Shown here one piece after another: positions 47,215-49,843 of a stretch of DNA of 64,000 nucleotides (position 1 is its first letter; each line of letters opens with the position of its first letter). The DNA comes from Eledone cirrhosa (Eukaryota). The DNA is taken from contig OZ024741.1 in assembly GCA_964016885.1 (NCBI GenBank), forward strand, positions 162,006,001 to 162,070,000. Reading direction: 5' to 3'. The position numbers and the translations under genes were made by a program. Under the pieces are notes generated by a model. It had not been told where the DNA came from, did no database searches, and saw only the letters and a program-made list of their open reading frames with translations.

Positions 47215-48359
47215 TGTTAATAATAACAACAGACAGATTTAACACAGAAGTTTATTTATTTTCACCACCAATTATTAAGACAATTTAAACCCTAACCCAA
47301 ATCCAACACTAACACAATTTATATTTACCAAAATAATCTTTAAAAGTATGTTTGTCTATTTTACCGGGACCAGCAAAATAGCCTATTCGTTAATTATACA
47401 AATATATTATGTCAACTATAGTTTACAAAAAAAAGTTAGATATTTTATTTTGAGTTATCCCCCCTGATTTTGAAAGTATTGATCAACAATGTTACCTTCC
47501 CTTAGTATGGGTATAGTCTTGATTAATTAGTTATCATCCTCATTATAGCAGTATCGGTAGGGCGTCAGACACCATGCTTTGCAACATAGAGTTCAAACCC
47601 CGCCGAGGTTAAATTTGCCTTTTACCCTTACGGGATCGATAAAATAAAGCACCAGTAATGCGCTGGAGTCGATTTAATTGATTTTCCCTTCTCCCCAAAT
47701 TGCTGGCCTTGTGCCCATAGTAGAAATCATTATTATTATTGGCAGTATCGGTAGAGTGTCAGACACCTTGCTTTGCAGCATAGAGTTACGGCCCTTTACG
47801 TTCTGAGTTGAAATCCCGCCGAGGTTAGCTTTGCCTTTCATCCTTACGGGGTCGATAAAATAAAGTACCAGTAATGCGCTGGAGTCGATGTAATCGACTT
47901 TCCCTTCCCACAAAATTGCTGGCCTTGTGCCTATAGTAGAAATCATTATTATAATTAGTTCCCCGCTCCCATCAATTTATCAAGACAATAAAATCTTTGT
48001 TTACACTAAAGGACCTCTTCACCATTTAGGTTGTGTTGTTTATTTTTTATTTTTTATTTTTTTTTTTTTTATTTTAAAACGCATTTCTTACTTTTATATT
48101 TCATAGATTTTATTTAAAGTTTTCCTCTTAAAGTCGCTGCGGATCCACTGTGAACTCATTTGGCCTCCACCCGCTGTCCTGTCGCTACAGGTCCGGTCAC
48201 CTTCCACACCATGTTGCTCTCATCGAGGTCATAAAGCATGGCTTGGATGCTGCAGGCTTCCCCTCCCAGTTCGAGCAGAACAATAATATGAGAGACGTAA
48301 GATAAGAAAATTATAAAATTATAAAAAAATTATAAAATTGACTTACTTACTTAAATATC

Positions 48360-48442
48360 ACTTCCAACTAATTAGTTTCTGGAATAGAGTAAATATATTT
48401 TCCGAAGAATATATAAAAAAAGCATTCCGTCGTCAGGAAAGT
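48360..48442 (-). ncRNA. Type I hammerhead ribozyme, intact core
   Basis: actttc-CTGACGA-c-GGAAT...ATTCC-a-GAAA-ctaattag-TT-ggaagt on the minus strand. Confidence 0.8.
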
Positions 48443-48964
48443 CTATTTTCATGTAAGTTTCCAGGCATAGCGAGGACTCTGGAAACTTATTAAAAAATAA
48501 TTCAGTGGAAAGGAAATAGCGAAGCGTGGACTGAAATCCTAGCCATTGAGAAAATCACTGCCTCTACGTCTGTGGCAAATTCAAAAAGAATCAATCACGT
48601 GACATCGAGGTCAATCAGTGGAAAGCGAGTTGTTAATAAGACAGCGGCCTGCCTACTACTATAGCAGCAGTCATGGCCAATATTGCTCGACAAATGAATT
48701 GGAGATAATTATAAAGAATTTATATCTAGTAACATTTATATACATACAGATGCATATCAATGCCAGCAAATATATAGGTTTTGTCTGAGTAACATTGTGG
48801 TTCAATGCATGGGGTTGCAGAACAATAATATGAGAGACGTAAGATAAGAAAATTATAAAATTATAAAAAAATTATAAAATTGACTTACTTACTAAAATAT
48901 CACTTCCAATTTTTTAATAAGTTTCCAGAGTCCTCGCTATGCCTGGAAACTTACATGAAAATAG

Positions 48965-49046
48965 ACTTTCCTGACGACGGAATGCTTTTCTATATATTCT
49001 TCGGAAAATATATTTACTCCATTCCAGAAACTAATTAGTTGGAAGT
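48965..49046 (+). ncRNA. Type I hammerhead ribozyme, intact core
   Basis: Stem I actttc(48965)/ggaagt(49041); CTGACGA at 48971; stem II ggaat/attcc; GAAA at 49027; palindromic stem III ACTAATTAGT; GUU triplet, predicted cut after 49040. Confidence 0.8.
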
Positions 49047-49843
49047 GATATTTTAGTAAGTAAGTCAATTTTATAATTTTTTTATAATTTTATAATTTTC
49101 TTATCTTACGTCTCTCATATATATATATATATATATATATATATATATATATATATATATATATATATATATATATATATATATATATATATATATATAT
49201 ATATATATATATATATATATATATATATATATATATTGTATTTATTTGTAGGTATGTGCGTGCGCTTGTTATATAAGTATTTATTTACTTATAAACGTTT
49301 ATATAATTATTTATTTATTTGTACACAAGCATACACACACACACATATTTATATGTGCGTGGTTTCGTAGACCTATGGTAAGGTTTTGCGGATGCTTGTG
49401 TATGTACGTATCTGTTTGCGTGTATGTATTTATTTGTTTCTATTACTTCTGTATTGTATTTATTTACTTTGTTCTTAACTCTGTAGCGGAGATTCATTTG
49501 GTCTCCTAGTTAGTATTTTAGTCTACGACTTCTGCTATACCATTTACGTGGTTTTGTCTTTGCGTGCTATTGTTCTCCACGCTCCACATATGACTTATTA
49601 TCTTCGTTTCTTCGTTCATTGCCAGAGAACGTCTCTATGCACCACCTAAGAGAACATTAGTCTATGACCTCTTTTATACCATAAACGTGGTTCTGTCTTT
49701 GCGCGTGTTTTTCACCGCTCCTATTAATGACGTATTATTCGTTTTTTCCCGTTCTTTGCCAGGGAACGTTTCCACGAACCAAAGTATCGTCTTCCTGTCT
49801 TCCTCCGGTTACAACGTTTTTTGAAATATTCACTTCTGCGTTC

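Follow-up and report, generated by a model that had tools for sequence, protein, structure and literature searches.

The closest described relatives of the repeat analysed here are the metazoan non-LTR retrozymes, which it resembles in being a non-coding, AT-rich unit with one type I hammerhead, arranged as monomers to short tandems, in its palindromic stem III, in a mismatch at the base of stem II that is also seen in an axolotl family, and in a proposed mobilisation by Penelope-like elements through circles (PMC7229834; 10.64898/2026.07.22.740005). Its length of 542 nt lies within the range of 51-972 bp given in the 2026 retrozyme survey (10.64898/2026.07.22.740005), although it is longer than the usual 150-450 bp, and it differs further from retrozymes in a stem II with a 35-nt loop and hairpin, and in that its circles are putative (PMC7229834; 10.64898/2026.07.22.740005). 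Head-to-head arms, targeting of (TA)n and two fixed 3' ends dominate the 542-nt family, whereas the words 'inverted' and 'microsatellite' are absent from the main text of PMC7229834.

The second comparison is with the EN+ Penelope-like elements, with which the family shares 5'-truncated partial tandems, an inverted truncated 5' copy, a tail that is often at one end only and a bias towards microsatellites (PMC4209133; PMC8557442), as well as, in the hammerhead, an extra nucleotide between core position 9 and the G-C first pair of stem II (PMC4209133). In contrast to these elements, the 542-nt unit has no ORF, and its tail measures 118 nt, theirs 30-40 nt (PMC4209133; PMC8557442); the one-tail rule, moreover, is here counted (43/44) and tied to a shared template haplotype. 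The origin of the tandem and inverted structures of Penelope elements, and of their tail, is named as open in PMC8557442. In the case of PAc (Poseidon of Anolis), the purified Penelope protein, a predicted dimer, nicks and extends both strands, uncleaved RNA is the dominant substrate and ribozyme mutants are still inserted (PMC11167929). PAc also has two internal start sites downstream of the hammerhead that define the tail, an AT-rich target and structured RNA near the start sites (PMC11167929). Its start sites lie next to each other and share no homology with the target, whereas those of the 542-nt family flank a 118-nt domain and match the target over about 4 nt of AU/TA; the use of the two sites once each per insertion, counted here, goes unreported for PAc (PMC11167929). 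Our literature search covered mainly open-access main texts, with older Penelope papers and supplementary species tables outside its scope, and listed none that deals with this family or with the two sites being used as a pair.

In this study, we have analysed a window of 64,000 nt from Eledone cirrhosa (contig OZ024741.1) and the copies of one of its repeats elsewhere in the genome. The locus described is probably a single truncated insertion from a family of repeats that encode no protein and bear a hammerhead (a non-LTR retrozyme), copied into (TA)n by a Penelope-like reverse transcriptase/endonuclease that would have acted in trans on a probably circular 542-nt RNA.

Results

Organisation of the locus

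Unit positions are counted along the minus strand with a period of 542, starting as position 1 with the G at 48907 that follows the predicted GUU cut. The locus comprises the following features:

48275..48909, minus strand: direct arm, one 542-nt unit and 91 nt of the next
48909..49120, plus strand: inverted arm, from unit position 410 via the ribozyme to position 80 (site A), then (TA)n
49117..49236, no strand: (TA)60 tract, the putative insertion target; nearly all canonical ends of the family abut (TA)n
48844..48881, no strand: 19-nt tandem duplication, with copies also at 48302-48339 and 49067-49104 (sequence comparison)
48130..48276, minus strand: fragment of an unrelated dispersed repeat, entered by the direct arm in mid-sequence, with 2 nt common to both
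48360..48442, minus strand: type I hammerhead motif of the direct arm, predicted cut 48366/48365 (sequence and covariation)
48965..49046, plus strand: hammerhead motif of the inverted arm, the second of the locus, with its cut predicted at 49040/49041 (sequence and covariation)

Much of this layout had been recognised in a sequence-only reading of the window, and it holds: the period of 542 nt (direct repeat 48275/48817, 96% over 100 nt), the two hammerhead motifs at 48360-48442 (minus) and 48965-49046 (plus), backed by core sequence and covariation, and the inverted copy (48909-49120) that is fused at the 5' junction and ends in the (TA)60. The two arms are 98% identical and joined head-to-head, the junction reading ...AAAAAAT-T-GGAAG. 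If 1 nt of microhomology is allowed, the direct arm starts at -2/-1; if a single untemplated T is assumed instead, it starts at +1. Either start lies no more than 2 nt from the predicted cut, in agreement with the 0-2 nt first reported. Its 3' end, at position 91 and without a TA tract, is non-canonical. The repeat at 48130-48276 is abundant (40/40 scored candidates match at 86-89% or better), and its other copies extend upstream past the point at which the direct arm stops. Because the arm ends at 91 inside a repeat whose other copies continue, the sequence suggests that the window copy lost its B end later, by deletion of positions 92-198 and the TA tract. As the window copy has one ribozyme per strand, no unit-length RNA can be released from it by double cleavage.

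Contigs from four sequencing runs were compared; two (X1, X2) matched the AT-rich part alone and two (X3, X6) contain the family. The X3 contigs show loose TA ends at 48286 and 48710, and as the kind of run is unrecorded and it may be the source of the assembly, they lend no independent support. Other repeats are also present in the window. To the left of the locus, 46000-46680 and 47520-47960 hold copies of a dispersed, SINE-like repeat of about 216-237 nt that are 60-88% alike; young tandem arrays lie at 4817-5160 (112 nt x 3.1, 97%) and 55921-56213 (51 nt x 5.8, 95%); and 50432-50643 is a near-perfect palindrome with arms of 109 nt at 94%, in which some other element may have inserted as a short head-to-head pair.

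The hammerhead motif

Type I hammerheads are recognised by the core CUGAnGA, GAAA and NUH, with three helices of which helix I is open. The motif at 48360..48442 combines a CUGACGA and GAAA core with a GUU triplet and a palindromic stem III (AACUAAUUAGUU); with this core and three helices at the sequence level, it is a type I hammerhead motif for which self-cleavage is predicted. Stem II is 6 bp long from its G-C pair on, and one C and one A at its foot stay unpaired, which brings it close to the Penelope-type motif of PMC4209133. The insert of stem II, whose length was noted in the sequence-only reading, proves to be a conserved internal loop and hairpin, of 35-36 nt instead of the proposed ~37, and its upper-stem sequence is wholly different between families. 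Stem III sits in a 12-nt palindrome through which two copies are predicted to pair; the dimer fold is predicted to be 11 kcal/mol more stable than two monomers, and the predicted minimum-energy fold of the direct-copy monomer is not the active one.

Covariation was assessed on 19 copies that span subfamilies and were picked for an intact core, over 22 pairs defined by us. In this set 95.4% of cells are paired in the ribozyme fold (96-100% in stems I-III), and double-sided changes number 28, against 8.9 +/- 2.1 in shuffles, a figure to be taken as support and not as a probability, the sequences being related and the structure drawn from the same sequences. Compensatory changes occur in stem II, one pair of which is seen as GC, UA, AU and CG. 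The core and stem III are kept in 19/19 aligned copies, as befits a set picked for its intact core. No Rfam match reaches the gathering threshold anywhere in the window, and relaxing the limit to E<=10 for 47800-49600 gives 14 matches, none of them a hammerhead; since Rfam gives no match, the assignment rests on core sequence and covariation. The long stem II insert probably explains the missing match. The ribozyme region alone folds no better than shuffles (z = -1.1), the whole unit better than all 100 of them (z = -4.5), and a hairpin at 48455-48489 (minus), just upstream of the ribozyme, is present in all aligned families.

A young subfamily of a large repeat group

A DNA search with the unit gave 116 matches from 40 scored of 2,894 candidates, nearly all 90-100% identical, among them true tandem copies at 542-nt spacing and arms of up to four units. 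Exact matches to a 26-mer (positions 1-26) number 174 in the genome, those to the core common to the 542-nt subfamily and a 523-nt sister 1,782, and those to the core of the remoter families, whose units measure about 525-570 nt, 8,753, so that the hammerhead repeat group totals >10,000 marker matches, with 0 for the reversed-pattern controls. The sister subfamily lacks the 19-nt duplication, which yields the 542-nt form from one of about 523 nt, and the 542-nt unit is a young subfamily of this non-coding group. Of the arms described below, 48/127 exceed one unit, the longest being 2,146 nt, and none is above about four units among the matches listed (100 of the 174 26-mer matches together with those of the DNA search); as loci were sampled by full-length score or exact 26-mer, arm lengths are biased.

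Eight aligned units are collinear, with a mean column identity of 80% and no conserved reading frame. The unit has no coding capacity, with neither an ORF nor conservation of the proposed peptide, and no LTR. Its dispersed tandem units, each with a type I hammerhead motif, are those expected of a retrozyme by sequence, and the earlier view of a hammerhead-bearing retrozyme/Penelope-like family is borne out by the dispersed copies and true tandems. The insertions carry the Penelope footprint of 5' truncation, partial tandems, an inverted 5' copy, a tail at one end and a microsatellite target. We hold with high confidence that the unit is a Penelope-mobilised retrozyme. A one-off rearrangement or assembly artefact is largely refuted, as the unit recurs on different chromosome-scale contigs at 95-99% identity with different flanks. 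A signature of A-to-I editing was also sought and dismissed, shared changes (A>G 10, T>C 12) being such as base exposure would lead one to expect.

Two fixed 3' ends and the tail between them

Along the minus strand of the direct arm, the following elements were mapped:

48828, minus strand: site A at unit position 80 (...CUCUC/AUAU), the first of two fixed 3' ends; putative priming site
48710, minus strand: site B at unit position 198 (...AUUCUU/UAUA), the other fixed 3' end; putative priming site
48711..48827, minus strand: 118-nt 'tail' between sites A and B, with two conserved hairpins
48800..48823, minus strand: hairpin GUUC-UGCA/loop/UGCA-UU-GAAC, reading VLQPHALN, with stems kept across families
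48589..48604, minus strand: conserved block around an E-box (UGUCACGUG), invariant in 8/8 aligned units

The arms of the family stop at A or B directly against (TA)n, each site offering a match of about 4 nt of AU/TA, and families about 70% identical use both sites. The single arms (n=32) stop at A in 24 cases and at B in 7, with 1 ending at another position. The 51 head-to-head pairs found at 80 loci divide into 43 A/B, 1 B/B, 0 A/A and 7 with one non-canonical end, the window copy being among these 7/51. Where both ends are canonical, 43/44 pairs therefore carry one A and one B, which under independent choice of site has P = 7e-19 at the single-arm frequency and 3e-12 at equal odds. A motif scan of 68 further loci added 20 pairs, 18 of them distinct, all A/B; the scan missed many B ends, so that B/B may be undercounted, A/A not. 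Classical twin priming of the L1 type, in which one arm stops at the primer of the other, was discarded, as no pile-up of lengths is visible by eye at 118, 424 or 660 nt. Neither the two fixed 3' ends nor the loss of the second end in the window copy had figured in the sequence-only reading.

The tail hairpins show compensatory changes at 3/17 consensus pairs, and the 118-nt tail is a putative binding platform for the mobilising protein. The peptide VLQPHALN had been taken for the remnant of a GIY-YIG C-terminus. When 28 copies were translated over this stretch, 14 of them from distant (sister) families, LQPH was read in 0/14 of the latter and an in-frame stop interrupted 6/14, while the hairpin stems were retained; the Penelope frames detected in the Eledone cirrhosa genome, moreover, end in other motifs. 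With the peptide not conserved and the stems kept, the remnant was abandoned, and judging from these alignments the stretch is an RNA hairpin inside the tail, not a protein remnant. The invariant E-box block is a candidate internal promoter element.

A template haplotype shared by the two arms

Within a locus, 49% of variants are shared between passes of the same arm and 51% with those of the other arm, against 11% between loci (figures that include one sister-subfamily locus). The arms of 27 loci disagree at 1/171 marker sites, compared with 27% (minimum 13.5%) in 5,000 shuffles; the 11 common markers were chosen after viewing the variant list and are linked, and 13/27 loci carry a variant. 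Inherited markers occur in all passes in 44/48 locus-marker cases. The private variants at multiply covered sites (n=164) comprise 21 shared by every pass of their locus, 8 found in some passes and 135 confined to a single pass, and the units of one locus still differ by 2.0%. This pattern of sharing fits a bottleneck of one unit in each generation, as a circle would impose, and the usual template is likely to have been a circle. The concordance of haplotypes may owe something to gene conversion or to lineages that were active in different periods, and nested sharing of variants in the long arms of L003 and L021 shows that some homogenisation followed insertion.

5' ends and the predicted cut site

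The 5' ends were examined at 80 of the first 100 loci, 20 of which overlapped another locus; removal of three loci with sister-subfamily arms left 127 arms, and seven 5' ends were corrected by eye. These ends occupy all ten 54-nt bins (4-23 each), and only 6/127 fall in the interval -3..+3 around the cut, whereas read-throughs of this site number 150. Without the window copy, the 5 cut-site ends observed compare with 2.1-2.6 expected (P = 0.07-0.12), and uniform truncation gives any two-armed locus a 2.6% chance of such a junction. In the whole genome, 23/1,782 cores have non-ribozyme bases at -3 and -5. By eye these resolve into 20 junctions at 16 insertions, 2 single-base insertions and 1 internal deletion; a control position gave 14 matches, with 10 junctions at 9 insertions, as a raw count with an uncounted denominator. 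The excess at the cut is thus about two-fold at most (P = 0.15 for insertions without the window, 0.049 for hits), and about 98% of copies read through the site. As the search pattern catches part of the cut-site junctions, their true share is perhaps ~2%.

The proposal that a junction at the cut site is the signature of the family is not sustained by these counts (6/127 arm ends vs 150 read-throughs; 23/1,782 genome-wide), and the survey of copies that had been called for upholds the 542-nt periodicity while showing the 5' ends of other copies to be scattered. This scatter makes the window junction weak evidence for a self-cleaved template, and its interpretation as the record of one shrinks to a minority class (20 junctions at 16 insertions, control 10 at 9). 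For the window copy itself, an origin of the junction from cut linear RNA is about as likely as chance. It is plausible that a small minority of insertions arose from cut linear RNA as a minor route. In four insertions (L174-176, L178-180, L187, L191/192) both arms begin within about 3 nt of the cut and end at 80 and 198; this may be the product expected from one cut linear RNA, annealing of the palindrome being the alternative. Other head-to-head junctions are centred on the hairpin upstream of the ribozyme (L014) or on a CACGTG palindrome (L075).

Candidate mobilisers

GIY-YIG frames are many in the genome (150 of 10,597 candidates were scored), and some lie in long frames with a reverse transcriptase whose score is just below the Pfam cut-off. 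Among 50 GIY-YIG loci derived from the 150 of 10,597 candidates scored, no ORF-bearing element had the ribozyme or tail of the unit, two carried a separate copy of a sister family, and no ORF joined to the unit was seen at any locus examined. Three Penelope-like loci (L151, L152, L153) contain frames that stay open for 844-1,096 codons, counted from stop to stop and in part made up of simple repeat, which suggests that these elements were active recently.

A Penelope family represented by L166 (G000:C1:97884000-97893000), and also by L154, L155, L160 and L164, has RT and GIY-YIG frames and, after the ORF, a minimal hammerhead and two 3' ends about 50 nt apart. The head-to-head insertion at L166, which bears a GIY-YIG frame, terminates on either side in a TA tract, and one of its ends is ~50 nt longer than the other. 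At this single locus, an ORF-bearing Penelope insertion shows the short/long footprint of the retrozyme. This family is a candidate source of enzyme for in vitro work.

Two further loci were considered and set aside. L101 (G000:C1:156262500-156271500), a head-to-head insertion of the 523-nt subfamily within several kilobases of degenerate TA repeat, is not an autonomous parent: its spacing of 3,011 nt arose by local duplication among the TA repeats, and it contains no genuine ORF. The hammerhead pair at L156:5600-5930, regarded as a possible ribozyme of the parent, belongs to a separate small head-to-head element of unrelated sequence, with one short and one longer arm, outside the ORF-bearing arms. 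At L161:7567-8600 we also observed three copies of a different small hammerhead unit, at a spacing of ~480-510 nt with TA tracts between them.

Discussion

The link between retrozymes and Penelope-like elements has already been published, with the copying step proposed and not demonstrated in the sources cited (PMC7229834; 10.64898/2026.07.22.740005), and the 542-nt family adds counted constraints to it: one end of each kind, one template haplotype and read-through of the cut site. In the model that we propose, tandem retrozyme copies would be transcribed, cut at their hammerheads, probably as dimers paired via the palindromic stem III, and then ligated into circles. A dimeric Penelope protein would bind the structured 118-nt tail and nick both strands of a TA tract; of the two DNA ends, one would prime from site A and its partner from site B, each by pairing over about 4 nt of AU/TA. 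The two cDNAs would pass the ligated cut site and run a random distance before their far ends are joined by microhomology, and a single arm would result when priming takes place from one DNA end alone. Penelope-type integration would be an asymmetric two-primer reaction, in which one dimer on one RNA circle primes both (TA)n strands from two sites held by the tail and rolls round from each, the double cut-site insertions being products of the same reaction on self-cleaved linear RNA. We offer this generalisation tentatively, giving it just under an even chance.

The most serious alternative retains two-site Penelope priming and dispenses with circles, the template being an uncut linear multimer and conversion together with unequal exchange keeping the arrays uniform and extended. 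Unprocessed RNA was the dominant substrate of PAc, with no reads starting at the cut (PMC11167929), and 8/9 Xenopus retrozyme dimers remained uncleaved in vitro (10.64898/2026.07.22.740005); this preference, the ribozyme mutants that are still inserted and the non-homologous start site all count against the model of a circle and of pairing at the target (PMC11167929). The read-through of about 98% of copies fits uncut RNA as well as it does a circle, and the nested variants of the long arms, in which conversion is apparent, keep this linear template in contention. We nevertheless consider it unlikely, since new markers fixed in all units (44/48) need either a one-unit bottleneck or frequent conversion, and frequent conversion is at odds with the 2.0% by which units within a locus still differ. 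Moreover, no long master array appears among the matches listed (74 of 174 lie outside the listing), and the core and stem III of the ribozyme are invariant across families ~70% identical, in copies picked for an intact core.

That self-cleaved linear RNA should be the main template, reverse transcription running off at the cut, is very improbable. The window junction no more than 2 nt from the cut, the about two-fold excess of junctions there and the four insertions in which both arms start within ~3 nt of it speak for such a template, but qualifying copies number 23/1,782, the excess falls short of significance when independent insertions are counted (P = 0.15), the other arm of the window copy runs through an intact ribozyme, and the double cases are also possible by annealing of the 12-nt palindrome and loss of its centre. 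It is scarcely credible that the locus is a one-off, rearranged and truncated autonomous Penelope with a GIY-YIG remnant, or an artefact of assembly: autonomous elements do normally form partial tandems that include a truncated copy in inverse orientation (PMC8557442) and VLQPHALN loosely resembles the PxLN ends of Penelope endonucleases, but the unit recurs with different flanks, the peptide is not conserved and no ORF is joined to the unit at any locus examined.

The cut-site junction, prized in the earlier reading, is a minor class that adds little. What the family offers is a small, defined RNA with two mapped sites, directly usable in the existing in vitro Penelope assay. If the two-primer reaction on a circle is true, it would explain the pseudo-LTR tandems, the inverted copy and the one-sided tail of Penelope insertions, and ribozyme activity in the germ line would have left its genomic record in the four double cut-site insertions.
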